A stretch of DNA of 63,981 nt, the filler included, from Stramenopiles sp. TOSAG23-2 (taxonomy: Eukaryota): NCBI GenBank assembly GCA_900128395.1. It is 3 parts of 3 records of this genome, joined end to end, with 100 filler letters (N's around TTAATTAATTAA, not from the genome) between each part and the next. Parts side by side here need not be neighbours in the genome. Positions count along the whole stretch, not along the records: positions 46,650 to 63,981 come from LT649648.1; 2 more parts are not named here. One strand, 5' to 3'. The position numbers and the translations under genes are program-made. Each line of letters starts with the position of its first letter. Within the stretch, counting starts at the first letter, position 1. This document shows, in pieces, positions 9,866 through 63,981 of this stretch. The notes beneath the pieces were generated by a model. The model ran no database searches. It saw only the letters and a list, made by a program, of their open reading frames with translations, and had not been told where the DNA came from.

Positions 9866-10290
9866 TATATCTGGTTGTCTTCTTCTTCTTCTTCTTCTTC
9901 TTTTAGAATTTGATTTGTAATATGGTCAACAACGCTTTACTACACTAATATAAATTAAAATGTTCTATGTTTTTTATCTTCTGCATATTTTCGAATTTCA
10001 AAGTCACGTCCGTTCATAAAAAAACCTTAACCTGGTGGCAAAAGAGCTGAGCTATTATAGGCCTAGTATACCACCTGGTGGTAGCTAGTGTGTTCCTATC
10101 ACAAATGACCGTAGAAGAAACCATGAAAACAACATGAAAATACAAATACAGTTGAAGTAGTATAATATGTATATATTGATAGATTTAAATTCCTAACTTG
10201 GTAAGACTAAGATAGAAGTTTGTACAAAAGACAAACAATATATACATATATATATATATATACATACATATATATGCAATTAATGGAAAT

Positions 10291-11364: not shown

Positions 11365-11569
11365 ACTTTGTTGAATATTATATAATAGCCCCAGCTGGCC
11401 AGCCCTGGGCCAGGTTATAAGGAGGTGGTTGTGCATTTGTATATTTTAGAAGAAAAGTTTTTGAATGCCAGGAATGCCAGAAGAAAATTTTTTTTATTAT
11501 TATTATTATTATAATAATATTTTATATCGATAATATATATATATATTACGCCTCGTATATTTACAGATA

Positions 11570-11605
<36 letters not shown>

Positions 11606-11619
11606 CACACGCGCACAAC

Positions 11620-22451: not shown

Positions 22452-23226
22452 ATTTCTACACTTTTATATATTGTGTGTGTGTGTGTGTGTGTGTATATAC
22501 ATAATATGAAAGGTGATACTAATACAGTGTTGTATATTTTTTAATAATTTAATTCGTAGGAGATATATTTGTGTAGATAGTTGCCTTTTAAGTTTGTTCT
22601 ATATTGCCTTGTTTTAATCTATTGGCAACAATGTTGAAAGGTAATAAAGTTAAAGTAGTCCAGTAGTAGTATTAATAGTTGTTGTTGTAAAGTATAATAT
22701 AGTTGTTTAATTCTAATAACTTGGTATTTTATACAAGTACCACCAGGTGCTAGTACAGTGCTACAAACATACCTGGTGGTAGCTCACAGCTATTAATACA
22801 TACAGTATGTAGCTCTAATCTGGTAATTGGTAATATTATACTGGATTACGTACGTGCGTATACAGCACACACAAGCTGGAAATCTCAGCTTCCCTGCCTC
22901 GTGATCTATGTATCAAATTCTTTAAATTAAGTATATAAGTTCTTGAATATTTAAGTATAATAAAACTAACTTTAATCAGTATATTTTTTGCTATCTAAAT
23001 TAAAAATGATACTATACAGTACTATCTACTATCTAAATCTCCATTAAATATATTACAAGCATAATTAAAATAATAAGGTGCACAAAGTAAAATATTATAG
23101 ATCGGTCCTCTCTATTAGCACAAAAAGTGTTATACTGTCCTTGTCGGCTAAAACAGAAAGTACATATAACAAGAAACGAAATGGCATATTATTTTCCAAT
23201 AGTGTGCCGTTTTAATAATATTATTT

Positions 23227-23326: not shown

Positions 23327-23804
23327 TTCTATCTAAATCTTCTACAAATTAATTCGAAATAAGACACATCTCTTAACACATCTCTAAATGAAAGAAGCGC
23401 ATGAATATTTTGATCTAAATATGTTTTAAATGAAACTGACAAGGTATTGAATTTTTTTCAAAATGCATAGGCTGGACTAAAAATGAAAAATTTGAAAATT
23501 ACAAAAGGTAGTTTATTGGATATAAATATACATTATTTAACAAAATAAGTATCCACGATCAATTTTGATATACTTGGTAATAAATACACGAGGTACATTA
23601 ATATTTCTATATCAACTTCACATTTGAATAACCGTTAAAAGTTGAAAAAAACGCGTAACCCTATAGCTGTAACACTACTTGATAGGTGGTTTTCACTTAT
23701 AGTGTCGGCTCTGTCTTACACTAATTAGTACAAAAATATTATACTAAATTATTGATAGGTATCAATATTCCAAAAACGATATTTACAATTTATATAAAAA
23801 ATGA

Positions 23805-24306
23805 TATTTCCATCTAAAATATGATATTTTGTATGATTTCATATTTCATAGTATTTATATCTAATTGTAAGAAGATGATGAAATTGTTAAAATGACAATG
23901 TAATTTTTATATGTATTTTGTGTTTTTAATAATGGATATTTTGATAATTTAATGATTTTAATAGATTTTATAATTTATTTTAGTCATTTCTGTAAATTAA
24001 TAATTTATTTAAGTACAAATTTTAATGTAAAAATTTGATGCAAGAAATTCTGCTATATTTCCATCTAAAATATGATATTTTGTATGATTTCATATTTCAT
24101 AGTATTTATATCTAATTGTAAGAAGATGATGAAATTGTTAAAATGACGATGTAATTTTTACATGTTTTTTGTGTGTTAAAAATGGATATTTTCATAATTT
24201 AATGATTTCTATGAATTTTATAATTTATTTTAGTCATTTCGGTAAATTAATAATTTATTTAAGTACAAATTTTAATGTATAAATTTGATGCCAGAAATTC
24301 TGCTAT
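23805..24306. repeat. Diverged tandem repeat, 2 x ~251 bp, very AT-rich
   Basis: TATTTCCATCTAAAATATGATATTTTG...GAAATTCTGCTA starts at 23805 and again at 24056, with scattered substitutions. Confidence 0.9.
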
Positions 24307-24987: not shown

Positions 24988-26415
24988 GTTACTTGCAACC
25001 TCGTCACAGGAAGAAAACTTTAATGAAAACAAAAAGAAAAACAAGGATGTCATACCACGTCAGCGACAAGGATCACCATTATCTAGTTTGAATGAAAAGA
25101 AAGCATCACCAACCGTAGCTAGCATACGATCTAATAGTTCACAAAAAGGTTTGAAGCGTAGTGCAGAAAGATTTCTAGACGACACTTCCACATCATACAC
25201 TCCACATTCATATGACACTGGTGGCAACAACAATGTCAGTAACGACGACAGTATACGATCCATTGAAGGTGATATCAGAAGGCAACGTGTACGTAGAAGG
25301 ACAACAATTGTATCACCAGTAACACTTGAATTCCATAGCAGTAACAACAATAGCAGCAGTCACATGATAACTCCACCATCCTCAAATATGGTAGGAAATA
25401 ATGAGGTCGCTCCTCTGGATAATCAACATCAAACGCCAACATATGCAGGGCAACAAAATTTTGAAGCGGAAGATGGTATCCTTACATCTCCAGTAATAAT
25501 GAAGGAAATAATGAGGTCGCTCCTCTGGATAATCAACATCAAACGCCAACATATGCAGGGCAACAAAATTTTGAAGCGGAAGATGGTATCCTTACATCTC
25601 CAGTAATAATGAATAACAGCAATGATGCTGATAATGAAACGAAAGAAGATGATGATAGCAATAGTGATCACGTGGAGGAAGAGATGAGTGCAGAAGATGC
25701 AGAAGCGGCTTCGTTAAGACTTGCCATGCAATTACAGGAGCAAGAAAGTATGATGGTTTATCAACAAATGCAACAAATGCAAGCAGCGATGGCACAATCT
25801 GCAGCAGAAGCTCGTGCAAATGGTGAAGGTGATGGGGAAGAAGAAGATAGTGATCTAATGTATGCGTTAGAACTTGCAAGACAAGAACAAATAATGGGGG
25901 AACAACAACAAGTAGAACAAGGGGAGGAGGGAGAATCATTCGATTCAGAAGATATGGATTATGAACAATTACTTGCATTGGGCGAACGTATCGGGGATGT
26001 GGCTCAAGATCGTTGGAGACTTAGCGCACCTGAAAAAATTGCAGCGTTACCAACTACGAAGGTAACCAAGGAATACATAGAAAAAGCAGAAGGAAATGAT
26101 GGAATGTGTCAAGTTTGTCAATGTGATTATGAGGAAGGCGAAGAGATGAAAATTTTACCTTGTAAACATCATTTTCATAGTGAATGCATCGATCGTTGGC
26201 TTCAAGATCATCCAACTTGTTGTATATGTAAAAAAAGCATAATAGCAGATGAGGAAGATGATAATGTAAAACAAAGTGCTGATAATACAATTAGCTCAAC
26301 GAGTGATAGCAGTCATAATAGTAGTAGCACAGCAAACACAAATACCCATAATTTAACACCGGAAGGGACAACAATAAATAATAATACACGCTTACATCGA
26401 ACCCCTTCTTCGTAA
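24839..26415 (+). CDS. RING-H2 E3 ubiquitin ligase (BIG BROTHER-related type) with UIM-like motifs, split by a 110-bp duplication
   Basis: DMDYEQLLALGERIGDV and CQVCQ...LPCKHHFHSECIDRWL...CCICK. Removing one copy of the 25394/25504 duplicate joins both ORFs in frame (ILTSPVIMNNSND). Confidence 0.85.
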
Positions 26416-30899: not shown

Positions 30900-31583
30900 A
30901 TGTCACCTACCGTATACGACTTGTTACGTGGCGCTTTATTTTGGATTATGTTTTATTTTGTTTCAAAATTTATAAGAGAGTGGTGGTATAATACCATCAA
31001 ACCAAAACCAAATCATATGTCCAAGAAAAAAAAGATTAGCGGCGAGAAAGACAAGGGTAATGATTCTAATGCTTTAATGAAAATGATTGAAAAGCAACAA
31101 GATGGTGGCATTGATATTAAAGCGACCGGAAATAAAACAGAACATTATTCATGGATTCAAACTTCAGAAGATGTAGAAGTAAAAATTCCGTTAGAACCAC
31201 TTTTTGATGAAGTGACGAAACATGATATACAAATTAGTATACAATATAATTTTTTAAAAGTAATAATAAAAGATAAAACGATAATGAACGATTTTACATA
31301 TGACGCATTAGATACAGAGGAATGTACGTGGACAGTTGAATCATTGAAAGATGATAATGATGATGATGTTAATAAAAGCAACACTAGTATGGAGAAAAAA
31401 TATTTATTTTTATATTTAAGAAAAAAATATGAAACCAAAGGGAAGGATAATTGGAATTGTGTTTTAAAACATGAAAAAAATAAAATTGATAATAGCTATT
31501 TAGGTGCACCAGTCAGTATACTTGATCCTAATGATCCTGATAGTATGAAAAATATTGTACAAAGTTTAAGAAGACGAGGTTAG
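30900..31583 (+). CDS. CS/p23 (NudC-like) domain protein with an N-terminal TM anchor
   Basis: YSWIQTSEDVEVKIP...DIQISI...ECTWTVE...LYLRK...W fits the NudC CS domain. Confidence 0.8.
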   Translation: MSPTVYDLLRGALFWIMFYFVSKFIREWWYNTIKPKPNHMSKKKKISGEKDKGNDSNALMKMIEKQQDGGIDIKATGNKTEHYSWIQTSEDVEVKIPLEPLFDEVTKHDIQISIQYNFLKVIIKDKTIMNDFTYDALDTEECTWTVESLKDDNDDDVNKSNTSMEKKYLFLYLRKKYETKGKDNWNCVLKHEKNKIDNSYLGAPVSILDPNDPDSMKNIVQSLRRRG

Positions 31584-31911
31584 AAAGACCAAACAGAAGG
31601 GAGTGTTTTATCTCTAGCCCGCTTTATCTAAAAAAATATGTAAAATATATTTATATGCATATTTTTTCTATAAAAATATTGTACAAAGTTTAAGAAGACG
31701 AGGTTAGAAAGACCAAACAGAAGGGATTGTTTTATCTCTAGCCCGCTTTATCTAAAAAAATATGTAAAATATATTTATATGCATATTTTTTCTATTTTAC
31801 ATGATAGAATTTTACGTATAAAAATTATGTGATTATCATACACCCAAAACGAATACGAAGTAAAATAAACACACACACACACACACTTTTGCAACTGCTG
31901 CATTTCCTCTT

Positions 31912-35529: not shown

Positions 35530-36053
35530 AAGTGGAACGACAGAAACGTGTATAATATATATAGATATTATTATATTCGTCGTGTGTGTGTTATATAATA
35601 TTTTTATATAATATTTTGAAGGGTAAGAGAACATTTTATAAAGTTGATGCGAAAATGTAAAAGTGGAACGACAGAAACGTGTATAATATATATCTAGATA
35701 TTATTATATTCGTCGTGTGTGTGTTATACGAAGTAATATTTATATAAAATATTTTTATCATAGTGCCATATAAAAATATTTTTTCAAATTAATATTTTAA
35801 ATATTTACTCTTATAAAAACAAAAGATTATTTATCTCCTCTCTCAATATTTAGAATTTATTTTATACACATATATGTATAATGTAAAAAATATATTATAT
35901 ATTCTGTGTTTTACAAATTATTTCTCTTCTTATATGATTCCTCTCGTTGCTTTTTTTTAAAACAAAAGATTATTTATCTCCTCTCTCAATATTTAGAATT
36001 TATTTTATACACATATATGTATAATGTAAAAAATATATTATATATTCTGTGTT

Positions 36054-36452
36054 TTACAAATTATTTCTCTTCTTATATGATTCCTCTCGTTGCTTTTTTT
36101 TCAAAACTTGTACTTCTTTTCTAGCACATGTGGTAAAAAGTCTCCATCTATGAAAATCAACCTCACCAGGTTCTAACGGATCATCTCCATAAATTTTATC
36201 AAAACATTGAATCGAAGTACATTTATTGATACAATTATCATTTTCCTCTGGATGTATTAATTTACATTCTTCTGACGTGATACAATCACGCCGTTTTGCA
36301 CGCCACACACGATCTAATTTCTTCCTCTTCGTATGTGCATTTGCAGCTCGAATAAAGGAATTCTTATTATTTTCAACCAAAAAAATTGCTATTACTATTA
36401 TGAATAATTCAAATAATTTAAAAGATATTTTGAGTTTATGCCAATAATTCAT
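36054..36452 (-). CDS. Small secreted/membrane Cys protein (DUF4787-like)
   Basis: N-terminal hydrophobic stretch and NCINKCTSIQCFDKIYGDDPLEPGEVD..R...F..C. Confidence 0.75.
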   Translation of the reverse strand: MNYWHKLKISFKLFELFIIVIAIFLVENNKNSFIRAANAHTKRKKLDRVWRAKRRDCITSEECKLIHPEENDNCINKCTSIQCFDKIYGDDPLEPGEVDFHRWRLFTTCARKEVQVLKKKQREESYKKRNNL

Positions 36453-37396
36453 TTTTTTACATTAAATAATAATAATAATAATAATATGTATTCTCTCTTT
36501 TTCTTGCTTTTTTTTCTATCTTTTTTTTGTCTCTCATTAATTTCAAAAATAAATATACACCATATATACGAATATTGTACTCTTCAAGCTTTTACAACTA
36601 GATTTTATACTGTATTATTAAATGTATACATCCAATACTTCTATATGTATATAGACGACTATTTCAACTTATATTTAAAATACAATATTCAATAATAGTG
36701 TAAGTGCAATAATAAAAAATGTATATATCCTATAGGACTAGATTTTATACTGTATTATTAAATGTATACATCCAATACTTCTATATGTATATAGACGACT
36801 ATTTCAACTTATATTTAAAATACAATATTCAATAATAGTGCAATAATAATAAAAAAATGTATAGCTAAAGCACACGGGAAGAATACCAGAATACAGGTAC
36901 TGTATCAATCAAGAAAACTGGAAGTTGGATTCCTTAACCATCCACACACACCTTATACAGTAATACAACTTGATATATACCACTATAGCAGGTGAATACG
37001 ATGGCCCAGGTTTTTGCACCCCTATAGGAAAGCACACGGGAAGAATACCAGAATACTAATACAGGTACTGTATCAATCAAGAAAACTGGAAGTTGGATTC
37101 CTTAACCATCCACACACACCTTATAATACAACTTGATGTGGGCATGGTGGGCATATTTTTATTTTGATTTTGGACAACCACAGACAACAACAACACCACA
37201 AATAATCATCATGCAATTCGGCATCATGCACTCATCATTATTAAATATAAATGTATAGACGATCATATATCTGATATATATAGATGTACTTGATAACACG
37301 TCATACACTAATCATATTATAGCATTGGATACGAAACACATTGTATACAACACACATAAACACATATATACATAAACATATATATATATATATATC

Positions 37397-42462: not shown

Positions 42463-42850
42463 CTCTTGTTGGTCATTAATCACGATTGCTCACCCGCAAA
42501 ATTGGATCGTAGGCGATGCTGTGTCTATGATAGATATATGCTAGCATTGTACTACGCTTAAAACCAATAGCATAGACACAGGGGGTGTTATTTTCAATTT
42601 GGCATTTCGAGTTGGAATTTCCTCACCGAGAGGATGAAAGTAGTACAACAATTAGTAGATAAATCCAACTTTTATTACTATCAAACTGAGTTTATTCCAA
42701 ATCCAAATGCGAAATTGAAAATAACACCCCCTGTGTCTATGCTATTGGTTTTCAGGCGTAGTACTATGCTAGCATATATCTACCATGGACACAGCATGGC
42801 CTACGATCCAATTTTGCGGGTGAGGAATCGTGATTAATGACCAACAAGAG
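42463..42850. repeat. Long imperfect inverted repeat (arms 42463-42618 and 42694-42850, 75-nt spacer)
   Basis: CTCTTGTTGGTCATTAATCACGATT...TTGGAAT is the reverse complement of ATTCCAA...AATCGTGATTAATGACCAACAAGAG, with about 10 differences over ~156 bp. Confidence 0.95.
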
Positions 42851-46649: not shown

Positions 46650-47179
46650 ATCCACTTGCCATCTTGTGACTTTTTTATATGTGTTTAAATGTATATATAT
46701 ATATATATGTCTTGTATATCTCTCTCTATTCGAATATATATATAGCTTTATTATTCATTCAATTTCCTATTCCGAAACCGAAGGTTCGACGATAAACCGT
46801 AGACTATCTATTTAGATGTGTTTGGTGAACAGAGAGATCTGAGGAAGAATATTTTACGAAATGAAATAGTAAATCAGCGTAAAGATTATATGTACGAAGA
46901 ATTTCTACGTATAAAAGTATTAAAAAATATTATCTTTTTTTCACACTTTCCGCGCTCCTCTTGTTGCAGCGCAGGCTGGCAGGTACGAACACACAGCTTG
47001 AGAGGCATCCTTCTCCCTTTTTTTAGTTGAGAAGATAAATTTTATTTTTACTCATCATTTTCAACACATGATACTTTAACTTGTTTTCTTCCAGGTAAAA
47101 GATGACGAATAGTAAGACTTACACGACGATAATTATGATCACGCTGTATCAATTTTAGTTGAGAAGATAAATTTTATTT

Positions 47180-48295
47180 TTACTCATCATTTTCAACACA
47201 TGATACTTTAACTTGTTTTCTTCCAGGTAAAAGATGACGAATAGTAAGACTTACACGACGATAATTATGATCACGCTGTATCAATTTAAATTTTGTTTTA
47301 TCATTTGGATTATCAATGTTATTATTATTATTATCACTTCCTTCTTCTGAGATTACCGTAGGTACTTTGTGATGCCTTGTAATTGCATGGCGCCAATGAT
47401 ATCTACAATCATCACTCATAATAAATAATGAATTTTTTTCCAATAAAACTTTAGTTTGACCTAAATATTTATCACATGAATTATTATGTACAATTGGCTT
47501 TTCAAGTGTCATATAAATTGGATTCAATAAACTAATAGTAGCAATTACTGGACCAAATGCTTCTTCATCTTCAAAATGAGAAGATATACCAACATTATCT
47601 ACATATTCATTTACAAGTATTTGTGTTGGAAATGTAGATTTATCATTTCCAAATATTTCATTATTAGTATTATTAGTTAAAAAAAAATCTGTATAAAATT
47701 TGTCAATTAAAAATTGAAATGGTGACATATCTAAATCGACATTGGATGGTTTAATAGGTTGTTTCACATTGTTGTTGTTATTGGCATTGGCATTATCGTT
47801 ACTATTATCAAATGTAGGCTGTATTTCAGCAACATCATGTATTGTATGGTAATATATTTCACCATAAAATTGTTGCCGCCGTCTAACTGCATTTCTCCAA
47901 GGATTTGAATCTAATATATTCATAATTTTAGTCACATCATCATCTGTTAAAAAATTCTGATAATAACGAAAACCTGAAATTGGTAAAACTGATGGATTTG
48001 AGACATAAACACGATTACTTTTCATTGTATTTATTACATTATTATCATTTGTTATCTTATCGTCGCTATTTTCATTACCATCTGGCATTGTACCAGTGAT
48101 ATGATCTAACATGATTTTTACTGGTAATTTATTATTATCTTGTTTTTCTTTCATCGAACATTCATAACATACCACTGGCCTTCCATTTTTAAAATTTTTA
48201 ATTTGTCGTACTGAAAAATTATCCACACAACATTCTTTACTAATTTGACATACACGGCATTTCACGGATTGAAATTTTTTCACAAATTTACTCAT
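47180..48295 (-). CDS. AlkB-family 2OG-Fe(II) dioxygenase with an N-terminal C4 (Stc1-like) zinc finger
   Basis: QILVNEY..GISSHFED (HxD), GPVIATISL, YHWRHAI and RRVSLTIR (RxxxxxR). N-terminal CRVC...FSVRQ...CYEC. Confidence 0.85.
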   Translation of the reverse strand: MSKFVKKFQSVKCRVCQISKECCVDNFSVRQIKNFKNGRPVVCYECSMKEKQDNNKLPVKIMLDHITGTMPDGNENSDDKITNDNNVINTMKSNRVYVSNPSVLPISGFRYYQNFLTDDDVTKIMNILDSNPWRNAVRRRQQFYGEIYYHTIHDVAEIQPTFDNSNDNANANNNNNVKQPIKPSNVDLDMSPFQFLIDKFYTDFFLTNNTNNEIFGNDKSTFPTQILVNEYVDNVGISSHFEDEEAFGPVIATISLLNPIYMTLEKPIVHNNSCDKYLGQTKVLLEKNSLFIMSDDCRYHWRHAITRHHKVPTVISEEGSDNNNNNIDNPNDKTKFKLIQRDHNYRRVSLTIRHLLPGRKQVKVSCVENDE

Positions 48296-50376: not shown

Positions 50377-50594
50377 GTTTACAAATAACTATATATTTTT
50401 ATATTTTGTTTTCTTTATGTTTATCTTTTATATTTTCAGTATATACATTTCTTTCTATTTATTATATATATTGTTTTCTTCTATGAAGAACATTCGATTT
50501 TATAGCATTATACAGACACTATATATAACAACTATAATAATAATACCGAAAAATATAGGACAAATGGAACAAAATCAATTTATAACATCACAAC

Positions 50595-51911
50595 ATGAAA
50601 TTCTTAACAATACCTAGATCGTCCTTCAAAAAAGTAGATAAAGGGTTATTAAATTATGCAAGTGGATTAATAGAAAAAAATCGAGATACATATCGTGAAC
50701 TACCAGTAAGAAAAGAAAATAATAATGAATTAAAGTCTCCGTTACATGATATTATTCCGAAAAAAATGCCATTAGAAGGAATTGCTGATTCAAAAGATGT
50801 TTTAGATATATTAACACATGATGTTTTAGAAACAAATGCACAGATAAATCATCCCGGTTTTATTGCACATATGGATCCACCAACCCCATCTATTGCAATA
50901 GCTGCCGGTATGATGCAAATTGCTACAAATCAAAATTTATTGCATCCAGACGTTGCTCCGAAAGCTCGACAAATTGAACAAAGAGTTATAGATTGGTTAG
51001 CATCATATTTTCATATGAACGGTGGGCATTTTGTTCCTGGTAGTACAATAGCAAATTTGACTGCATTATGGGCAGCTCGTGAAACGCGTGATATCACCAC
51101 TATTATAGCATCGAATAAATCTCATTTATCTGTTAAAAAAGCTGCAAATTTATTGAATTTAAATTATATTGAATGTAAAACAAATGAAAAAGATGAAATG
51201 ATAATCAATGAATTATTAAATGTGAAAGATTTAAATCAATCCGCCGTTGTTTTAACAGCAGGCACTGTTGCCTGTGGTGCATTTGATCCAATTGATGAAT
51301 ATTTTGACAAGGTAGGAAAAATGAATGGCAGTGGTACAGCTGCTAAATGGGTCCATATTGATTCAGCATGGGCTGGACCTTTGCAATTATCATCTAAATA
51401 TAATCATATTTTTAATGGTATTGAATATGCCGATTCATTTGGATTTTCTGCGCATAAATGGATGTATCAACCAAAAGGAACTGCTTTATGTTTATTTAAA
51501 AATGTAGATGAAGCACATGAAGCTTTAAGTTATGGAGGTGGTTATTTAAGTGCACCAAATATTGGATTACTTGGAACGGCACCTGCATCTGCTATCCCAT
51601 TATGCGCAACATTATTAAAATATGGATTAAATGGAATGGTTGATTTAATTGAAAATGATATGAACAAAGCTAATGAATTGATTGAATTGATTCAAGCAAA
51701 TGATAATAAATTTGAGTTATTTAATTCAAATGTATGTGGTGTAGTGGTATGGAGAGCAAAAAATAAATGTGCAGGAACTATTCGTGGTTCATTAAAAAAT
51801 GGTTGGGTATCACTATGTGAAATAAATGGTGAATTTTGGTTTCGTAGTGTCTTTTCGAACCCAAATGCAGATCCAAAATTGTTATTTGATGAAGTTTCAA
51901 AGGTGTGTTGA
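50595..51911 (+). CDS. Group II PLP-dependent amino-acid decarboxylase, bacterial-like
   Basis: HPGFIAHMDPP, PGSTIANLTALWAAR, SHLSVKKAA, TAGTVACGAFDP, WVHIDSAWAG and SAHKW (PLP Lys). Confidence 0.9.
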   Translation: MKFLTIPRSSFKKVDKGLLNYASGLIEKNRDTYRELPVRKENNNELKSPLHDIIPKKMPLEGIADSKDVLDILTHDVLETNAQINHPGFIAHMDPPTPSIAIAAGMMQIATNQNLLHPDVAPKARQIEQRVIDWLASYFHMNGGHFVPGSTIANLTALWAARETRDITTIIASNKSHLSVKKAANLLNLNYIECKTNEKDEMIINELLNVKDLNQSAVVLTAGTVACGAFDPIDEYFDKVGKMNGSGTAAKWVHIDSAWAGPLQLSSKYNHIFNGIEYADSFGFSAHKWMYQPKGTALCLFKNVDEAHEALSYGGGYLSAPNIGLLGTAPASAIPLCATLLKYGLNGMVDLIENDMNKANELIELIQANDNKFELFNSNVCGVVVWRAKNKCAGTIRGSLKNGWVSLCEINGEFWFRSVFSNPNADPKLLFDEVSKVC

Positions 51912-54920: not shown

Positions 54921-56315
54921 TTAAAAGTAATATGGATCTCTACCACGACCATTATTACTATTGTTATTATAACGATCATCAACACGATAATTTCGTTCAC
55001 GACGACCATTTCCATTATTATTATTTTGATTATTATTATTGTAATAATCAAATTTACTATTACCATTATTATACATGTAACTATTACTATTACTTCTTCT
55101 ATTTCCTCTTGCTGATGTTGTAGCACTATATTTATTAATATTATCATTACTTCCACTACTACTATCGCTTAATTTACTAACAATATTACCAGTAATAGTA
55201 TTACTACCATCCGCTTTATCATACATAGCGTTGTAATATGCTAATATCATTCCAACAAATTCCAATCCTAATGAAACAAACCATTCAATTACACCAAATG
55301 CATTTCCTTTTTCTGGTTGAAATAATGTTTTTTGCAAGGAAATACCTAGAATTAATGTTACTAAAAATACTATAAGTAACGATATTGCATAACCATACAA
55401 CATATCACGACGACGTTTCGATGCAGCGATCCATCCACCGATCGATACAATGATAACATACAAACCAACACCGACACGTAAATAGGAAACCCAATTATTT
55501 TTTATATGTTCATCACTTGGATATTCTTTCGAAGGATGCGATAAACCATTTACAATTTGCAATGCACCAAATATTAAATTACAAAATGCTATTAATTGTA
55601 AAATAATAGAACATGCACCAGCAGGACTTAAATTGTCGGTATCAGCATTGTTCCAACCTTCTTTTTCATATATGGAGGACAACAAAGTATGAAAGCTTTC
55701 TTCAACATTTTTATTCGTCTTTGCAGATACTTCCAGGAAATCGCATCCCATCTCTTGTGCAACTTGTTCACCTTCTTCATAAGATACTTGACGGCGACTA
55801 TTGACATCACATTTATTTCCAACTAATAAACGAGGTATAAATTCTGCGGAACCCATCATCGTTGTTAAAATTTTATCGTTGATATAACGCGCCATTTCAA
55901 ACGAATGCCTCGATGTTACATCATATACTACAATGTAACCATGTACACCAATATAATATCTTGCGGAGAATACTGTTAACTCATCTTGCCCAGTAGTGTC
56001 ATGAATAGTCAAAGTTAAACTTTCATGTCCATATTGTATACGTTTTCTATATGTACTTTCAATAGTTGGATTGTATTCTTTATCAAAGACATGGTTTACA
56101 AAACGCCCAACAATCGATGATTTACCAACACCACGGAAACCTAATACCACGATTTCACGTTGTTTTTTAGATCTAGTAGCAGTTTGTCGTAATATATCTG
56201 GTGAGTTTGGATTCGAAAATTCACTATATGGTAACATATTTTCATAGTCATTATTGGTGTACATGGAAGTTTTATTAGAAATATTTGTAGCAGTAGCAGT
56301 AGTAGTATTATACAT
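54921..56315 (-). CDS. RHEB: Rheb-family GTPase with four C-terminal TM helices (Rheb-TM)
   Basis: G1 LGFRGVGKSS with the Rheb-specific Arg, effector YNPTIEST, DTTGQDE, IGVHGYIVVY, NKCD, SAK; then 4 hydrophobic helices and an Asn-rich tail. Confidence 0.88.
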   Translation of the reverse strand: MYNTTTATATNISNKTSMYTNNDYENMLPYSEFSNPNSPDILRQTATRSKKQREIVVLGFRGVGKSSIVGRFVNHVFDKEYNPTIESTYRKRIQYGHESLTLTIHDTTGQDELTVFSARYYIGVHGYIVVYDVTSRHSFEMARYINDKILTTMMGSAEFIPRLLVGNKCDVNSRRQVSYEEGEQVAQEMGCDFLEVSAKTNKNVEESFHTLLSSIYEKEGWNNADTDNLSPAGACSIILQLIAFCNLIFGALQIVNGLSHPSKEYPSDEHIKNNWVSYLRVGVGLYVIIVSIGGWIAASKRRRDMLYGYAISLLIVFLVTLILGISLQKTLFQPEKGNAFGVIEWFVSLGLEFVGMILAYYNAMYDKADGSNTITGNIVSKLSDSSSGSNDNINKYSATTSARGNRRSNSNSYMYNNGNSKFDYYNNNNQNNNNGNGRRERNYRVDDRYNNNSNNGRGRDPYYF

Positions 56316-56683
56316 CTTGTTTCACACCGTCGACACACTTGTATACACAAACGCACACAGCGTAAAGTATTCTATATGTATATATATATGTAGAGAGAGA
56401 GAGAGAGACAGAATGTGAGTGGTATAATATATTTCTATTTGTACAAATAGATAGACAGACGTTCTTTGTCTTCTTCATATCGATAGTTGTTTTAGTTCAT
56501 TTTATGGGTAATTTTTTAAATTATAAATAATTGTGGAGAGGCTTGTTCGATTTGAAATCTTCCTATCAAAAATGACTATTAGAATATTAGAGATAATAAT
56601 TCATCAATTCATCCATCCGAATTTAGAATAATTGTGCAATTATTTTTTTATAGTCGATAGGCACCATAGCACGACGAAGAAGA

Positions 56684-59600
56684 ATGCAGTATTTCAATGA
56701 AAAAAAAATTATTAAAAACAACAATTGTAAACAAATAATACGATACCACGCACGGAGATTGTCATCCGTGAATGTGTTTATTGCTGTGCCAAGATCCTGC
56801 GCGCAAGTGAGTTTTATGATATACTGTATGTTAGCTATTTAAAGGAATATAATCGTTTTGACCACCCACAGAAGCTTGTTTCTCAGTTGTTAAAAGAAAT
56901 GATATCTCCAACCAGAAAACGTGTTTCTAGTGGGAAAAATAAATTCGTTACCTTTCACCGCAAGACTGGTGTTTTTGAGTTAAGGCCTGGTAACATGTTA
57001 TATGCATTTTGTATAAATGCTGGCGGCCATTTGGAACATTTATACTGGGGTCCTAATATTGTAGAAAATGCGTCATTATCTTACCTGCAAAGTTCAAATG
57101 TAAAATTAGCCTTTCAAACTGAAGCTCCACCGATAGATGTCAAACACAAGCAAAAAGAATTTGTACAGCAACTTATTGAACGGGAAAAAAGAAAAGATAT
57201 TAGGCCGCAACAAGTGTGGAAAAATTTTCGTGGCTCCAACGACGTATATCGTAAACGAACAGAAAATATTTCATGGAGAATGTGGACGAGAAATCGAACG
57301 AAAGGTATTAGTGAAGGAGGAAAACTAGTTGATGATATGGTAACTGCACTGCCTCGAGTAGACTTTAAAAAACAAAATGTAATGGCAAAAAGAGCTTTGT
57401 CAAAAGAATACGGAGCCACTGAAAGTGAAAAACGAAGGAGTGAAAATCCACTTATTAAAGACGGCACCGATTCCAAAAATATATATATTACGGCAATAAA
57501 TAATGGCAACATTAGTAAGTCCAATAACAGCACAAAACACGATAGTAGTGAAAATGGTACTGGAAGGAGTCCAGGTGGTAAACGCGGTGGCCGACAATCA
57601 CCAACCTTAACATTTAGTAAAAACTTTAGCGTGTCAAATCTACAAGATTTGTGGGAAGGTGAAGACCCGGGACAAAACCAGCATATCAATTCATTTTTAA
57701 TTTCTGAAATATATCGTCGGAAAAAGTCCATTGTCGGGAAAGGTGCTATAAAACACGAATATTCTGATTTTGGCACGGGTGATTTTCGAAGTCCGAGTTT
57801 TCGTTTGTCATACACGTCTGATGGTTCTCATATTTCTCCAATACTGTATAAAAGTCATCGAATCATTCCAGGAAAAGTGGAAATGAAGGACAAATGTATG
57901 CCACATATTCGTTCATGGGCAAAGACGCCTGCTGAAGAGAAAAAATTTGCTACCACTCTTATTATTACAATGAGTGATAAACATACGGGATTTGAAATCG
58001 ATTTAATTTACACGGTCATTCACAATCATGATGTCATTGTGCGTAGCACCGTTTTTAGAAATCCATTATCAGTAAACGGGAGGCAGGGAAACAATTATGG
58101 CAAAGGCAATAACCCAATAAGATATAGTGCACGTTTGCACCGTGTAATGAGTGCAACAGTTGATTTTGAAAATGAGCGCGGGGGGTATTATTGTACATAT
58201 TTAAGCGGTTCGTGGGCCAGAGAGCGTATTGTAGAGGAAACTAAGTTGCAACCAGGAACTTTTTCGATTGGCTCTACGCGTGGCACAAGTTCACATGTTC
58301 ACAACCCTTTTTTTGCTATATCAAGGGGTGGACCTTCCAATGAAAATAATGGAGATATATTTGGTTTTGCATTGGTGTACAGCGGAAATCATGTTATGGA
58401 AGCGGAACGGAATGAAGTTGGGCGAATACGTATAAATGCTGGTATCAACCCAATGTGCTTTTCATGGGCATTAAATCCTGGAGATGAGTTTCAAACTCCT
58501 GAATGTGTTATGGTATACTCATCGACTGGAATTGGTGGCATGAGCCGCGCATTTCATACCTTATTCCTTGATCATTTATTGCCCAAGGAATGGTCACATA
58601 TGCATCCACCTATATTACTGAATTCATGGGAAGCAAAATACTTTGATGTGTCACATGATAACATTATTCAAATGGCTACGCAGGCAAGTAATTTAGGTAT
58701 TGAAATGATCGTTTTAGACGATGGTTGGTTTGGTGAACGAAATGATGCAAACACATCATTGGGAGATTGGGAAGCTAATCGGAAAAAATTTCCATATGGT
58801 ATACGTGGCTGTGCACAAGCAGTGAATAGCGTAGGATTAAAAATGGGCTTATGGTTCGAGCCAGAAATGATTTCAGTGAATTCAAAGCTGTATCAGCAAC
58901 ATCCAGATTGGTGTTTACATGTGCCTGGCCGACCAATGCAACGAGGTAGAAATCAATTGGTACTCAACATGGGAAGAACGGATGTTCGGGATTATCTTTA
59001 CAAATGTATCTCAAAAATTATTGAAAAGGCCAACATTGCATACATTAAATGGGATATGAACCGTTATTTGACAGAAGTTTTTTCAGTGGAATTGGAAAAT
59101 TCAAGGCAAGGCGAAACAAGTCATAGATTTATGTTGGGGACGTATGATTTATTGAACCGAATCGTAAACCAATTTCCACATGTGTTGCTTGAAACATGTT
59201 CCGGTGGTGGAGGTAGATTTGACCCTGGAATGTTGTATTTTTCACCCCAAATTTGGACTAGTGATAATACAGACGCTCTGAACCGCGTCGATATTCAGTA
59301 TGGAACATCACTATTATATCCTGCCCGTGCCATGGGATCTCATTATTCAATGTCGCCAAATCATATAACAATGCGACAGTGTCGATCTCGGACTAGAGCG
59401 TTTGTCGCCATGTGTGGAACGTTTGGTTTTGAATTAAATTTAGGGACAATATCAGTAGAGGAGCGTGGGTATGTAAGTAAATTTATCGACATGTACAAAG
59501 AAGTAAGGGATGTTGTTGCGTTTGGTAATTTATATCGTTTGTGGGATCCTAAGGAAGATTTCTGTGCTGCGTGGATGTATGTTTCATATGATCGTCAAAA

Positions 59601-60006
59601 CGCTGCCGTGTTTGTATTTAATACTGGTATGAGACATTGGTCTGATTTGATGCCAACATTGAGGTTGCAGGGTCTAGCGAAAAATACACTTTACGAAATT
59701 ACGGAACCTATGCCTAATGAATTTACGCGAAAGGAAGACAATTTGCAAGTTGTTCGTGCAACTGAGCCCAGCTATCAGTTATCATCGAAGGTGGTTTACC
59801 TTCGTGGGTCAACCTTAATGTTAGCAGGTATTCCGGTCAAATTTTTTGCCGCGGATGATGCTGTTTGTTTCAAACTAACTGCAAAACAGTCGTCACACGA
59901 AGCTGATGCGGACAACGCCATGTCCCCATCGAATTCTTATTTAAACTTACAGCTTCTTGAACCACGTAGTGAAGAGAGCCAACAGAACCAAGCATTATTC
60001 TTCTAA
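56684..60006 (+). CDS. GH36 alpha-galactosidase (bacterial-type melibiase); probable first exon 56684-56806, intron 56807-56886
   Basis: EYSDFGTGDFRSP, PILLNSWEAKYFD, VLDDGWFG, GLWFEPEM, YIKWDMNR (nucleophile), CSGGGGRFDPG, WTSDNTD (acid/base). The GTGAGT...TCTCAG intron is in frame with an upstream ATG; the first exon is less certain. Confidence 0.93.
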
Positions 60007-60758
60007 AAACCCGCACATATATAAAAAAATATCACCAAGTACGTTTCATAAGTACAATATACTTGGTGGGGTATATATACTCGTATAAAATTACATTCTC
60101 TCACTCATGTAAATTTTTCATATATATTTTTTCATAAAATAGAGATATAATTTAATGAGTAAAGAAAATAATATACTGAGAGTATATAATTTAATTTGTA
60201 GTGCGCACTAAAGTGGGTATTTGGAGGAGAATGCAAATTTTTAATCAACAGAGGATTGAAAACATCGATGTACCTCCATCGGCACTCTTCCTTTATTCGG
60301 CTGTACTGACACTTACGGTAACTTAAAATCGATTATCTAGGAACTCAGCTATTTTGCATTCTTTTTGAGAGTAAGAATTTAAAATCATGAGTAAAAATAA
60401 AAAAATAAAATTACGCACACGTACAAAATTTTAATTTTTATAAATTTTTATTTAAATTAATCAACGAACGCGCATGGAAGGATAGAAACCTACACTTGTG
60501 CTTGTAGAGTATTAGTTTGCAGAGGTGCATTAGAGCTTTACTATAGTAGGATAGCATATTATTCTTGCGATTGAGTATTGAGCATATTACTTAACACGAG
60601 AAGTGTAAAATTATTATGATATAACTTAGATTTTAACCATCACTTTTAAATTAATTTATATAAATTTATTCAATATCTACAATAAAACTGTAAACACTCG
60701 AAGAATGCAAAATAAGTTTCATTAATACCGTCGTATATCTCTTATATAGATTCAAGAT

Positions 60759-63002
60759 CTAGTTTAAAGATAACACGTTTCGCCATTCACTCCACTTTTT
60801 CAATGCTACACCATTGCATTCTTTTTCCACAATATCTTGATTATACGATTGCATAAAATGTATATGTTGCCACGTCGGAGCTGCATTTGCACCACTTATC
60901 TTAGGCTTGTCATCAATTATAAAGTCACCAGAGATAACAGTTTTATCCCTGGCAATAATCAATTTATCAACCCATGATTTTCCAAGATGCTTTACTACAA
61001 ATTCGTATTTTTCATTCGAGCATTGCCCTGGGCATGTTGGATGAGGAGATGTAACAATTTTTACATCAATGTTTGGATCGGCGGCCATTTCTTTCAGAGC
61101 TTCAATTGCACCAGGGTATGGCTCGAGGGAAGCGTAAAAAGTAGGTTCTGCTACTACATCTAACACCGTAGCTTGTACATTTTCATCAAAATTTTTCTCG
61201 ATTTCGTAAGAACTTCGATTTTGCACAATGTTCAGAATCTTTTCGTTTGATAATATGTCACGTTTTGAAAATCGTGCGATAAATTCCTTGTCCCAATCGA
61301 CAACCGTATTGTCAAGATCAATAAGCAACCTCAATTTACCACCATAACGGCCATTTTTATCTTTAGACTTTTCGTGTTGTGACTTAAACATATCATAATA
61401 TAGCGCATTCATTTTATCATAAGAAAATTGACGAAGTACGCGTTCTCTACCGGCAGATGCAAATTTTCGACGCAATCCATTGTTGTTGTATAATTTCGAG
61501 ATCGCACCCTTCAACGCGGCGTCGTTTGCAGGCGGTATCAAAAAACCCTCGACATTATCACTGACCGCCTCTGGAATGGCATCAATGCGGCTACAAATTA
61601 CTGGCCTTTCAAATGCCATTGCCTCACATATGACCAGTGGTAATACCTCATTCAATGATGGTACCACAACAACATCAGCTGCCATGTAAAAGCGGAGGAC
61701 GTTCTTTTGAATATCCATAAGAGTAAAATCTGTTGATCCTTTAACTGTTTGTTCCTCATATCGCCCCCACGTGCACCCATATGTTTCAATGGTTTCTTTA
61801 ATTTTGTCAATGTAAGCTATTTCATGATCCCGGATGTATCGCGCACCAACCATTAGGACTTTTAAGTTCGATAGCGACTCTTCTTTTATCAACGATGAAC
61901 AAGCTTTTGCAGTATATATTTGGCCTTTTCTCCCACAAATCGTTCCAATGTGTAAAACTAAGAAGTCTGATTTGTTGTAACCCAACGCGCGCCGGGTCTT
62001 TTCTCTTGAATGTGATTTTTTGAATGCATCCAGGTTTTTTAATGGCTTCAAGATCAAGATAGGAAGGTAAGTGAGAAAGATATGCAATGATAAGGAAGCT
62101 TGTTAGTCAAACTAAATCTTGAAAAAGTTATCAAAAATATATCCCTGGCGTATGTACACGTTTTACATGTCTATACTTACTATGCCATTGTATACAGTAA
62201 TCGCAGCATCGTCTTGATAAAGGCCTTTATACAACAACTTTTGCATTGTCGATGGAAATACAATTCTGCTACACACTCGAAATGCTTCTTTAATTTTTTT
62301 TGCGGTCAAATTTTTTCTTAGGAATACTTCTTGAGCGTAATATTCCAATTTATCTTGTGGCCAACTTTCATGTATCACCCAAATAGATGGTATATTGATT
62401 TTATCCAATTTAACAATAACGTCGCATCTCATAATTGTATTTGCAAGCATGACAGAAACCTGTTTTTGTTTTATGTGGTCCTCTAAGGTATTTAAAAAGT
62501 AGTCATCATTAGGATTAATTATAATAACTTCAACATCTGTACAAAGGCTCTCAAAATCGCCTTTCATAGGACCGTCTTTTGGCGCAAATACAATATATTT
62601 ATTGCTTCTGACTAAAGCGCGCAGAAGAAACAAACAGAAATTATTTGCACCATTTCGTTCCATCGAATGCAGAAATATAGCAAACGTTTTTCGCAAACTT
62701 TGTACGCCCTGGGAACTACCGTTTGCACGAGGCAAAGTTACTTTTGATATAGGCTGATCAAACAATTCTAAGCTATTTTCTGGTAAATATAAATCGTTAT
62801 TATTCTTGTTGTTTTTTGATATTTTTTTTACTGCTTGTATGATATCGTTCACGCAACTAGCACTTAACTTATGTTGTTTTCTAAGCTCTTGAAATGCTAA
62901 GAACGATGCAGTTTTCAAGTCTGACTCTGTTGGTCTATCAAATGCTGTTATAGGTTTATTTAAATTGATAACATTTGATCCTGTATTATCGTCTGAATCA
63001 TA
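60759..63002 (-). CDS. GT4 glycosyltransferase fused to an NT5C/NT5M-type HAD phosphatase; intron 62046-62180; 5' end missing
   Basis: Splicing gives VYNGI|PLKNLD. GT4 motifs: WVIHES, IGTICGRKGQ, PSLNEVLPLVICEAMA. HAD motifs: LLIDLDNT, DKTVISGDFIIDDKP...PTWQHIHF..SYN. The frame is open to ~63002, where a stop appears with no upstream ATG. Confidence 0.88.
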
Positions 63003-63118
63003 TCAGAGATAAATTACTATCACAAGGTGCAGCACCTGAATTATTTGATATAAATGCAATAACTGTTGATGAAGGTGCTTCATCTAGTAATAATAATAAT
63101 AATCAACAGTTTGTATAA
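63002..63118 (+). pseudogene. Orphan 3' CDS fragment (IRDKLLSQGAAPELFDINAITVDEGASSSNNNNNQQFV*)
   Basis: Protein-like frame with no ATG, head-to-head with the truncated GT4-HAD gene. Confidence 0.4.
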
Positions 63119-63522
63119 TAAGATAAAGTGCTAACAGCTTATTTTATTATTTTACCATACATATTATACATATAACTTTGTACTTGTTAGTATAACCAAC
63201 AATCGGTATTTTGCCGATCACCGAAAATCGGTATTTGCACATTTTGCCGATCTAGATCACCGATCATAAAGAAATTCTGAATTTTGAACATTAGCATAGG
63301 AATACCATTCAATATGTACTTTGTTTGTATTCTATAAATAAGAGTTTCTACATAAAACGATCTAAATTTTACACTATATATTTTTATACTTATTGACATT
63401 ACTTTAATATTTTTTAACCCTTAATATTACTTTACTGTATGCCTTATATGATAGGAAGTTAGTCTATATTTAATATTTTGAGTTAAGTGATAGTTAAAAT
63501 AACCACTTTTTTACTATTTTCT

Positions 63523-63668
63523 TATTGGGTCCAGTCAACTGGACCCAATAGCAACGATATTGGAGTATCGAAAATATTGCAATGCTATGCGATGCTAGCG
63601 GAATTCGAAGATATTGACTATTAGGTCCAGTTAACTGGACTCAATAAGCAAAAAACTGGACCCAATAG
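63523..63668. repeat. Cluster of related palindromes
   Basis: TATTGGGTCCAGT-CA-ACTGGACCCAATA at 63523-63550, an imperfect copy TATTAGGTCCAGTTAACTGGACTCAATA at ~63619-63646, and a half copy ACTGGACCCAATA at ~63655-63667. Confidence 0.8.
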
Positions 63669-63981
63669 TGGCGGAATCAGGGATTTCTCCCTGATGAAAT
63701 CTATCGTTCGTGGTGGTATAGATGATTAAAACACCCACCATACATGTTAGAAAACTTATATTTTGATTTGGTAGAAGAAATATATACAGGAAAAATATTT
63801 AATATGTGTCGTTGTGTGTAATCATTAAATTATGTTTCTACTAAATATTAATAGGTTGTGTAATATAAAGAAATTAAAGTTAATTCAATATATACTATTT
63901 TATCATTTTTATAAAACGTATTTAATTTAAAGCTGTCGATTTATCTTGTTATACGTGTTAATTTAATGCTAAGCCCATGCA

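Follow-up and report, generated by a model that had tools for sequence, protein, structure and literature searches.

A GT4–NT5C fusion gene beside a GH36 alpha-galactosidase gene in a marine stramenopile: a candidate pair for making and breaking a small alpha-galactoside

What does a glycosyltransferase fused to a phosphatase make, and does the alpha-galactosidase encoded beside it break the same compound? Two genes in the window, the 63,981-nt stretch of Stramenopiles sp. TOSAG23-2 DNA analysed here, raise these questions. An initial annotation had described a single spliced frame joining a GT4 domain to a HAD phosphatase (DLDNT...DD), and Pfam, the motifs and an RNA contig across the intron bear this out: a GT4 glycosyltransferase and an NT5C-type HAD phosphatase form one fused minus-strand gene. 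Glycos_transf_1 (91.4 bits; cut-off 26.4) and NT5C (56.7 bits; cut-off 24.8) match the same ORF at 60759-62102(-), and Glyco_transf_4 matches the ORF at 62163-63002(-) with 26.1 bits, slightly under its cut-off of 28.5 (E = 1e-5), and the relative P0004 with 43.2 bits. A metatranscriptome contig (run X15, record 5, 1571 nt) spans 60841-62045 and 62181-62546 and omits 135 nt, the ends of which read CT..AC on the plus strand, that is, GT..AG on the strand of the gene. Because this contig crosses a GT..AG intron (62046..62180, minus strand, phase 0; 255 nt on the shorter side of the joint), the GT4 half and the NT5C half lie on a single mRNA.

The last exon (60759..62045, minus strand), delimited by Pfam, an alignment of 14 GT4-family sequences and the RNA joint at 62045, encodes the C-terminal Rossmann half of GT4, a linker and the NT5C phosphatase (60762-61349, minus strand, from Pfam and the same alignment), and ends in the stop codon at 60759-60761. 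The upstream exon (62181..62991, minus strand) is 5'-truncated and, from Glyco_transf_4 and homology to same-species contigs, encodes an N-terminal helical region and the N-terminal Rossmann half (HSMERNGANNF...). The EX7E and GxxxxRKG motifs and HAD motifs I-IV are kept in 14/14 aligned family members. Within them, E133 and E141 of the GT4 E-X7-E motif (NEVLPLVICEA; 61623..61649, minus strand) are invariant, as are G34, R39 and K40 of the G..RKG nucleotide-binding loop. Among the conserved HAD residues D243, D245, K346, D378 and D379, the invariant D243 and D245 are the nucleophile Asp and Asp+2 of motif I (DLDNT; 61305..61319, minus strand), aligned with DMDGV of human mdN, and the nearly invariant D378 and D379 form motif IV (DD; 60909..60914, minus strand), aligned with mdN IDDRP.

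The neighbouring plus-strand gene is a single exon of 1035 aa plus stop (56899..60006). Its Pfam domains (GH36N, 205.9 bits; Melibiase, 478.1; GH36C, 39.7), its similarity over the catalytic core to AgaA of Geobacillus stearothermophilus (GH36 subgroup I, 4fnr; E = 8e-188) and its catalytic motifs, the same as those of AgaA, identify the predicted product as a GH36 subgroup I alpha-galactosidase. Unlike AgaA, it carries an extra ~200-aa insertion and a C-terminal tail. KWDMNR, SDNTD, DDGWF and GGGGRFD are invariant in the GH36 alignment, with D719, D789 and D792 of the KWD and SDNTD motifs, which we take to hold the catalytic Asp residues, invariant in 11/11 sequences. The N-terminus shows no signal-peptide-like sequence. 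The gene had been described as an intact alpha-galactosidase ~750 bp tail-to-tail from the fusion, and it does lie convergent to it across a 752-nt spacer (60007..60758, from the gene coordinates) as one ORF with its catalytic motifs present. RNA contigs cover 58662-60096 over the GH36 gene and 62181-62969 over the upstream exon of the fusion, and contigs of both genes are present in 3/3 RNA runs; both genes are transcribed in the sea, and both products look catalytically competent from their sequences.

The window copy of the fusion gene lacks its first ~105 codons. These are present in two same-species contigs (L001 and L002, 98-99% identical DNA), to which the upstream exon is 98.9% identical up to 62991, where the homology ends with no in-frame start codon beyond. 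The 5' end that the initial annotation had called missing is thus recovered, its PF08550 module included. The sequence in its place (62992..63981) has no L001/L002 homology except for 63694-63921, which matches L002 2585-2809 in inverted orientation, and has a DNA depth of 24-268 versus about 1-8 over both genes; a repeat or mobile element may have inserted here, or the sequence may reflect a rearrangement or a join made during assembly. The spacer, about 550 nt long in L001, contains a dispersed repeat of about 185 nt (60462..60646) flanked by ATTAATTTAAA-like direct repeats. This insertion is missing from L001 and L002, copies of the repeat lie at L001 4884-5351, its read depth is extreme in three RNA runs and one DNA run, and it matches neither Rfam nor tRNA models. 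A window that is rearranged or broken at 62991, carries repeat insertions and derives from an uncultured marine organism might hold its two genes side by side by chimeric assembly. Against this stands the same convergent pair, contiguous in L001 (15,018 nt) and L002 (9,735 nt), which are 98-99% identical to the window and have different accession prefixes, although one of the two contigs could derive in part from the reads behind the window. Since other lineages have the pair as well, we regard a chimeric adjacency as very improbable.

The search for homologues of the fusion returned 139 matches, with Klebsormidium, Bryopsis and Stygamoeba among the named members, and a metagenome search for GT4 relatives returned 64 loci; on these matches the GT4–NT5C fusion is a widely conserved eukaryotic family. 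Linkage to GH36 in related genomes had been proposed as a test of the pairing, and such linkage was seen in several deep lineages, with the genes in one of three orientations (convergent, divergent or tandem). A GH36 gene stands beside the GT4 relative in 7 of the 24 metagenome loci with enough flank (at least 2.5 kb on one side of the GT4 locus) and at one short locus (L035), and no GH36 was seen at the other 17 of the 24. The linked loci belong to the same species (L001, L002), to a MAST-4 stramenopile (L010, its GH36 99.9% identical to P0122), to Cyanidioschyzon merolae (L028, its GH36 100% identical to P0179) and to three further lineages (L016, L060, L035). In C. merolae the GH36 and GT4 genes are orthologous to those in the window and both carry PF08550; their adjacency is drawn from L027 and L028. 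They point away from each other, their start codons about 3.1 kb apart, whereas the window genes are convergent. In Cyanidiococcus the two have consecutive locus tags (GT4, CCYA18G4579; GH36, CCYA18G4580), and in Galdieria phlegrea their gene numbers are far apart. Unlike the fused window gene, the red-algal GT4 orthologues lack the phosphatase domain, and the C. merolae locus contains no NT5C elsewhere either. The GH36 clade has members among the red algae and cryptophytes, as well as in one haptophyte and one chrysophyte. The homologue search gave no named chrysophyte, cryptophyte or haptophyte GT4–NT5C, though GH36s of these groups matched, and no named GT4 match for Chlorochromonas danica, Guillardia, Prymnesium or Chromera, though same-clade GH36s occur there. 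A literature search for the GT4–NT5C fusion found no paper.

GT4 is a retaining GT-B glycosyltransferase family (CAZy), and the Pfam domains, the E-X7-E and G..RKG motifs and a predicted GT-B two-Rossmann fold place the transferase half within it. An AF2 model of L003, a relative that is 70% identical, has a pLDDT of 85.3 and Foldseek TM scores to GT4 structures of 0.73-0.84, with HepE as the top match followed by others that include sucrose-phosphate synthase (SPS, rank 5), MshA and BshA. By profile, the best solved relatives are BshA (1e-27), SPS (6e-24) and MshA (1e-23), all with small soluble acceptors, most of them anionic. The domain falls in no family defined by NCBIfam, with all scores far under the cut-offs. 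Sucrose-phosphate synthase itself was rejected (TIGR02472, 20.9 bits versus a cut-off of 576; S6PP absent among the Pfam matches), as was a TPS/TPP-like GT20 floridoside-phosphate synthase (neither Glyco_transf_20 nor TPP in Pfam at E up to 0.01). The SPS/SPP system (solved GT4 domain 6kih, Tll1590) likewise combines a retaining GT4, whose acceptor is small and phosphorylated, with a HAD phosphatase that acts next, and in many organisms the two are fused. Its HAD, however, is of the S6PP rather than the NT5C type, and the gene neighbour here encodes an alpha-galactosidase instead of an invertase or sucrose synthase. MshA and BshA, the closest solved GT4s by score, transfer from UDP-GlcNAc to the small anionic soluble acceptors inositol-1-phosphate or L-malate; identity to them is 15-20%, TIGR03449 and TIGR03999 score far under their cut-offs, and these enzymes lack a fused phosphatase and probably use a different donor. 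The MshA product is dephosphorylated at a later step.

The same searches lend something to a quite different role: the GT4 would assemble a polymer or glycoconjugate, and the GH36 would either trim it or have no functional tie to its neighbour. HepE is a polysaccharide glucosyltransferase, relatives are labelled 'CapM' or 'cell wall biosynthesis' in the databases, and there are weak matches to generic EPS GT4 models. Those names are automatic, however, the NCBIfam scores fall well short, inspection of the translations by eye found no membrane segment or signal peptide, and a polymer would explain neither why a soluble phosphatase is fused to the transferase nor why linkage to GH36 recurs. We consider this role improbable.

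The motifs and Pfam score of the phosphatase half assign it to the NT5C family (PF06941), and it aligns near full-length with the human deoxyribonucleotidases cdN and mdN (2i7d and 1mh9; profile E = 1.8e-49; 31-35% identity), end to end with mdN, sharing their fold and four HAD motifs; a predicted model superposes on their structures with an rmsd of 1.6-2.2 Å and TM of 0.88-0.90 (Foldseek). In contrast to cdN and mdN, it is fused to GT4. Other NT5C relatives are fused to GT2 transferases, a 51%-identical copy (P0050) to a NUDIX domain, and more distant copies to dNMP kinase or dGTP diphosphohydrolase, the last three partners pointing to nucleotides. At the mdN positions F49, F75, W76 and W96, which we take to be the base-stacking residues, an aromatic is kept at the first two (F49 to W, F75 to Y) and lost at the others (W76 to E, W96 to V), at odds with the aromatic stacking expected of a 5'(3')-deoxyribonucleotidase; the mdN S78 position also reads E. 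A conserved (F/Y)ExE replaces FWVS across the core fused clade and is limited to that clade and its nearest stand-alone relatives. The substrate is probably not a nucleotide.

The identity to human deoxyribonucleotidases leaves some probability for a nucleotide role. The domain would then be a genuine nucleotidase that either clears away a by-product nucleotide or has a glycosylated nucleotide as its substrate, and the GT4 product would be phosphate-free, with no synthase/phosphatase at all. The close resemblance to cdN and mdN over the full length, the NUDIX, kinase and diphosphohydrolase fusions and a red-algal GT4 that works without NT5C fit such a role, against which the altered base-stacking positions and the clade-specific (F/Y)ExE must be set. 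A GT4 releases NDP, which is no substrate of 5'-nucleotidases, and every GT-HAD fusion studied is, to our knowledge, a synthase/phosphatase, the characterised ones (SPS-SPP, TPS-TPP and floridoside-P synthase/phosphatase) all being two-step solute synthases. A true nucleotidase thus seems unlikely, though clearly less so than a polymer-building role.

The two proteins also appear to share a short module. The N-terminal domain of the GH36 is interrupted by the ~200-aa insertion, which is missing entirely from the bacterial reference in the alignment and contains an AreA-N/DUF1752-like module (VW...RTENISWRMW; 57217..57291, plus strand). This scores 18.2 bits with PF08550, under the cut-off of 20.9 (E = 0.0023), and its residues W107, R120, E122, N123, W126 and R127 vary little or not at all across the eukaryotic GH36s. 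PF08550 also matches the GH36 N-terminal piece of L035 (22.7 bits) and the same-species GT4–NT5C in L001 (25.1 bits), in a region missing from the window copy. Because both proteins appear to carry the module, they probably respond, in opposite senses, to a single upstream signal.

Our preferred reading, to which we give a probability of roughly 0.45, is that the fusion both synthesises and dephosphorylates an alpha-galactoside phosphate while the GH36 hydrolyses what results, the two forming a cytosolic pair that would make and break one small alpha-galactoside. The GT4 would move galactose from UDP-galactose onto a small phosphorylated acceptor, with sn-glycerol-3-phosphate, giving floridoside or isofloridoside phosphate, as the prime candidate; the NT5C-type HAD would strip the phosphate and make synthesis irreversible; and the AgaA-like GH36 would split the product back into galactose and acceptor. 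Since GT4 enzymes are retaining, a UDP-alpha-sugar would yield an alpha-glycoside, the bond type cut by GH36, and because the pairing recurs in distant relatives and red algae the two enzymes probably act on one compound. We infer the donor, acceptor, product, direction of regulation and physiological role, as osmolyte or carbon buffer, and (iso)floridoside is the leading guess for the product. The make-and-break proposal of the initial annotation thus keeps its conserved architecture, intact motifs and recurrent GH36 linkage, and is weakened by the deoxyribonucleotidase-like HAD and its NUDIX-fused copy, the red-algal GT4 without a phosphatase, GH36 clade members in taxa without a named GT4 match, the 17 of 24 loci without GH36 and the separated G. 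phlegrea genes.

Should the enzymes be coupled through another sugar or acceptor, the pair would serve carbon storage or signalling rather than osmotic balance, and the product could be an alpha-galactoside of glycerate or of an inositol or sugar phosphate; a short precursor of oligosaccharides is another candidate. Linkage, motifs and the apparently shared module fit this too, and the NCBIfam, profile and Foldseek matches fix no acceptor. The taxa of the GH36 clade match the groups known to contain (iso)floridoside, and we know of no other cytosolic alpha-galactoside from stramenopiles or Cyanidiales; both points count against a different product, which is possible but doubtful, and slightly less so than a nucleotidase. 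The red-algal floridoside enzymes, in agreement with the initial annotation, are TPS-like (PMC6642608, PMC8703398, PMC5559212). Those of Galdieria (Gasu_26940, Gasu_10960) and Pyropia (PhTPS) share the chemistry proposed here, UDP-Gal plus glycerol-3-P, dephosphorylation and degradation by alpha-galactosidase (PMC6642608, PMC8703398, PMC5559212), the last being the accepted floridoside-degrading enzyme (PMC8703398), but they are GT20 plus TPP, so that both the glycosyltransferase and the phosphatase families differ. Such (iso)floridoside synthases are proven in red algae (PMC6642608; Pade 2015 cited in PMC5559212), which favours another product and weighs against our preferred reading: because TPS-like enzymes already make (iso)floridoside there, the red-algal GT4 may make something else.

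The two genes also stand slightly apart in base composition. They had been described as more GC-rich than their neighbours, and their GC3 values (0.319 and 0.349) are the highest among 32 ORFs of at least 180 aa, the next being 0.308 if an antisense ORF within GH36 is left aside. The effect is real but small, and their GC of 0.39 is equalled by two other ORFs.

The GT4–NT5C gene is read from two segments of the minus strand: 62181–62991 (-) codes for the N-terminal region and the N-terminal half of the GT4 domain, and 60759–62045 (-) for the C-terminal half of GT4 and an NT5C-type HAD phosphatase, as assigned with Pfam. A 1571-nt metatranscriptome contig connects 62045 with 62181, skipping 135 nt with GT..AG ends, so the fusion is encoded by one spliced mRNA, as the initial annotation had proposed. 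The EX7E motif, the G..RKG loop and HAD motifs I–IV are kept in 14 of the 14 family members that we aligned. The window copy lacks a start codon. Six-frame reading of 62000–63981 and tblastn with the N terminus of L003, an intronless relative with 70% identity, found no 5′ exon in the window; the ATG that lies in frame at 63083 runs into a stop, and small-intron models for the 5′ end were dropped because RNA coverage is absent past 62969. The missing codons were recovered instead from two metagenome contigs of the same species, L001 (15,018 nt) and L002 (9,735 nt), both 98–99% identical to the window at the DNA level. Their match to the window gene ends at 62991, and from there the frame extends about 105 codons further, up to a Met. 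This added N terminus carries a PF08550 module (AreA-N, formerly DUF1752; LRQNWRVY...RRLENASWRV) that scores 25.1 bits where the cut-off is 20.9. At 804 residues, the complete protein of this species is laid out as module, helical region, GT4 and NT5C.

The GH36 gene at 56899–60006 (+) is a single open frame of 1035 codons with three GH36 domains (Melibiase 478 bits, Pfam). Its nearest solved structure is Geobacillus AgaA (E 8e-188), and ten relatives aligned with it share the DDGWF, KWDMNR, GGGGRFD and SDNTD motifs without change, in line with the intact α-galactosidase of the initial annotation. The two genes indeed lie tail to tail, with stop codons 752 nt apart where about 750 bp had been estimated. 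The elevated GC content also noted for them holds in rank but is slight in size: their GC3 values of 0.32 and 0.35 are the highest among 32 ORFs of at least 180 aa, with the others at 0.31 at most.

The sequence at 62992–63981 is unrelated to the gene start in L001 and L002, has high depth in a DNA metagenome and contains palindromic ATTGGGTCCAGTTGACTGGACCCAAT-type repeats at 63523–63550 and around 63640–63690. It could have arisen by a repeat or mobile insertion, by rearrangement or by an assembly join. A 228-nt piece of it (63694–63921) is found in inverted orientation ahead of the gene in L002, but not in L001, so the region upstream of GT4–NT5C differs structurally among strains or assemblies. 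The spacer between the two genes holds a further element of about 185 nt at 60462–60646, flanked by ATTAATTTAAA-like direct repeats and absent from the spacer of L001 and L002. As a candidate RNA gene it was ruled out: Rfam returned no match, whether by the gathering score or by the looser limit of E ≤ 1, and there is no tRNA in it. It has copies elsewhere (L001 4884–5351) and is a dispersed repeat. Its very high depth in both DNA and RNA runs reflects the match of the same sequence to other places in L001. It may represent a mobile element, SINE- or MITE-like, of marine stramenopiles.

To establish how widely the two genes are linked, we used 64 metagenome loci with GT4 relatives, 24 of them with 2.5 kb or more of flanking sequence on one side. 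GH36 is present at 7 of these 24. The genes are convergent in L001 and L002, as in the window. In L010, where the GH36 is 99.9% identical to a MAST-4 entry, they are divergent with about 600 nt between them, and they are divergent again, about 3.1 kb from start to start, in L027 and L028, where the GH36 is 99.9–100% identical to the α-galactosidase of Cyanidioschyzon merolae 10D; in L028 the GT4 occupies 8810–10663. They stand in tandem in L016 and, with introns, in L060. In addition, at L035, a short locus of a distant fused clade, a divergently oriented ORF resembles the N terminus of GH36 and scores 22.7 bits for PF08550, and in Cyanidiococcus the GH36 and GT4 proteins are on one contig with consecutive locus tags. 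GH36 was not seen at the remaining 17 of 24 loci, including a Pyropia-like group (L017–L022) and L015, some of them flanked on one side only. Among the contigs listed for DNA metagenome run X2, none spans both genes, which is neutral on adjacency. Adjacency in six or seven lineages and three orientations is far above chance for two given genes. The linkage anticipated in the initial annotation is thus found in related genomes, and the chimeric join that it had raised as an alternative is excluded by this recurrence and by the convergent pair in L001 and L002. Conservation of metabolic gene pairs is uncommon among eukaryotes.

The two enzymes also appear to share a short module. Eukaryotic GH36s of the window clade, which takes in red algae, Guillardia, Prymnesium, Chlorochromonas danica and MAST-4, have in alignment an insertion directly after the LEHLYWG strand with the motif VW...RR.EN.SWR.W, and the bacterial GH36 reference lacks it. 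In the window GH36 this motif scores 18.2 bits for PF08550, slightly below the Pfam cut-off; many red-algal GH36s have the PF08550 annotation. With PF08550 at the N terminus of the same-species GT4–NT5C, both members of the pair therefore probably carry the same module. According to a recent preprint, the domain also occurs in Reg1 and Reg2, which regulate Snf1/AMPK in yeast (bioRxiv 10.1101/2025.06.23.660305). The pair provides two client enzymes for measuring what the DUF1752 module does.

Many protists have the GT4–NT5C architecture, at 41–56% identity, the named members being Klebsormidium nitens, Bryopsis sp. and Stygamoeba. The nearest GT4s that lack the phosphatase are about 600 aa long and carry PF08550, and such proteins occur in every red-algal class sampled (Galdieria, Cyanidiococcus, Porphyridium, Pyropia and Gracilaria). 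In a quick maximum-likelihood tree of 116 GT4 domains, with an uncertain root and long branches flagged, the red-algal proteins group in a single clade (SH-aLRT 89), which rooting on cyanobacterial-like GT4s places within the fused forms, suggesting that red algae lost the phosphatase. Scans of genome contigs gave no bacterial orthologue, one Leptolyngbyaceae MAG apart, and a family-alignment scan of genome contigs gave zero relatives. With the cyanobacterial GT4 P0107 as query, the sole close match was its own MAG contig, L065, where the gene lies beside PepSY_TM, DctP and PPDK but neither a GH36 nor a HAD; the remaining 79 loci are generic GT4s with partial matches at 40% identity or less. 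A bacterial origin or context was rejected, given the empty genome-contig scan and the lack of GH36 or HAD beside the L065 gene. The ESM Atlas returned generic bacterial GT4 fragments only (0.90–0.91) and was uninformative.

Our literature search, which covered few subscription journals, found nothing on the GT4–NT5C fusion or the gene pair, nor on a chrysophyte isofloridoside-phosphate synthase gene or on GH36 in MAST genomes; the main text of PMC8237690 mentions neither GH36 nor osmolytes. What we regard as new is the fusion with NT5C and how widely it is distributed, the gene model confirmed by RNA, the recovered 5′ end, and a linkage that extends over stramenopiles and other lineages.

The phosphatase domain resembles nucleotidases. 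The family profile matches the human cytosolic and mitochondrial 5′(3′)-deoxyribonucleotidases (cdN and mdN) at E 1.8e-49, and an AF2 model of L003 (pLDDT 85.3, pTM 0.58) superposes on them with an rmsd of 1.6–2.2 Å at 31–35% identity. Where mdN has F75-W76-V77-S78 and W96, residues that we take to hold the nucleotide base, the window protein has Y-E-I-E and V. An (F/Y)ExE signature extends across the core fused clade and to some stand-alone proteins of 180–250 aa; a word-index search for stand-alone NT5C gave nine matches, mostly fragments. Relatives of this domain are also paired with NUDIX (51% identity), GT2, dNMP kinase and dGTP diphosphohydrolase. P0050, a 340 aa fragment from a JGI metagenome, joins NUDIX directly to an NT5C domain with 51% identity to that of the window and with the same FEMEKNF signature, a third architecture of the phosphatase subfamily that bears on its substrate. 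The GT4 part is nearest to BshA, SPS, MshA and HepE, at 15–20% identity, and falls below every NCBIfam cut-off.

The best-supported general mechanism, to which we give a probability of about 0.45, is that GT4 and NT5C would act as a two-step synthase/phosphatase making an α-linked glycoside, which the partner GH36 would hydrolyse, with synthesis and hydrolysis coupled under one regulatory input. The glycoside is most likely a galactoside because the GH36 partner recurs. Galactosylglycerol leads the candidates for this product, albeit at long odds. It is favoured because the GH36 clade tracks lineages that contain (iso)floridoside, and because the outline of a glycosylglycerol-3-phosphate, by our own reckoning, resembles a 5′-nucleotide. 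A further reason is that α-galactosidase is the accepted floridoside-degrading enzyme (PMC8703398). Four main cautions apply to this reading as a whole: red algae already have a proven (iso)floridoside route through TPS-like enzymes, as PMC6642608 and PMC5559212 describe and as the initial annotation had stated; their GT4 orthologues have no phosphatase, the relatives of the HAD domain are of nucleotide type, and there are no named chrysophyte members of GT4–NT5C among the matches.

A bolder but improbable reading is that galactosylglycerol (floridoside or isofloridoside) has a second route of synthesis, independent of TPS, in GT4–NT5C, which would form with GH36 an ancient, module-switched two-gene cassette setting the main organic solute of MAST-4-type flagellates. 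GT4–NT5C would then be a chrysophyte-type UDP-Gal:glycerol-3-P galactosyltransferase, the cassette would have been kept linked, or relinked, from red algae to stramenopiles, and the shared AreA-N/DUF1752 module would switch both enzymes. The biochemistry of the chrysophyte galactosyltransferase is decades old, and to our knowledge the enzyme has no assigned gene. MAST-4-type flagellates count among the most common bacterivores in surface ocean waters, and the pair points to a possible major organic solute of uncultured marine flagellates. More generally, it joins a probable synthase to a matching hydrolase with apparently the same regulatory module on both, and so offers a testable unit for on/off control of a protist sugar solute. 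The candidate enzyme family, on which we found no paper, spans stramenopiles, green algae, an amoebozoan and red algae, and suggests a role for the red-algal GT4 that adjoins an α-galactosidase gene; as C. merolae is genetically tractable, this prediction can be tested directly.

Other GH36 loci gave two minor observations. The MAST-4-like contig L010 has a GH79-like gene at 144–1772 (-), about 2 kb past its GH36. Under the EukProt naming scheme for Chlorochromonas danica, from which alone the organism of P0127 is taken, the GH36 paralogues P0127 and P0259 are numbered consecutively (gene2519 and gene2520) and at least three further GH36 proteins occur, which suggests a tandem GH36 expansion in a chrysophyte.

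The window is AT-rich (about 31% GC) and reads with the standard code, with ordinary eukaryotic genes for ABC transporters, COG6, a proteasome subunit, a SNARE and a Ras-like GTPase. The closest named relative of its GH36 is the EukProt entry Stramenopile-MAST_4 (58% identity) and the stretch is present in many marine metagenomes, which together point to an uncultured, MAST-4-related marine stramenopile. The ORF at 20514–22463 (-), 650 aa with a Glycos_transf_1 domain, was set aside as no kin of the GT4–NT5C family (23% identity over 113 aa). A pyridoxal-dependent decarboxylase at 50586–51908 (+) and an amidase at 11518–13500 (+) are among the neighbours, with no link to the pair seen. At 54924–56321 (-) the architecture is unusual: a GTPase domain of the Ras family (158 bits) is fused with a membrane region resembling tetraspanins (35 bits) and with a long tail rich in Asn. 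Two-copy tandem duplications are numerous; their units measure 110–143 nt at 93–100% identity, and they lie at 23804–24306, 25385–25604, 31548–31795, 35811–36096, 36597–36857 and 47021–47284. Finally, inverted repeats are nested at 42463–42850; their arms measure 101 nt (93% complementary) and 69 nt (90% complementary), and the structure may be an element that forms a hairpin or is MITE-like.
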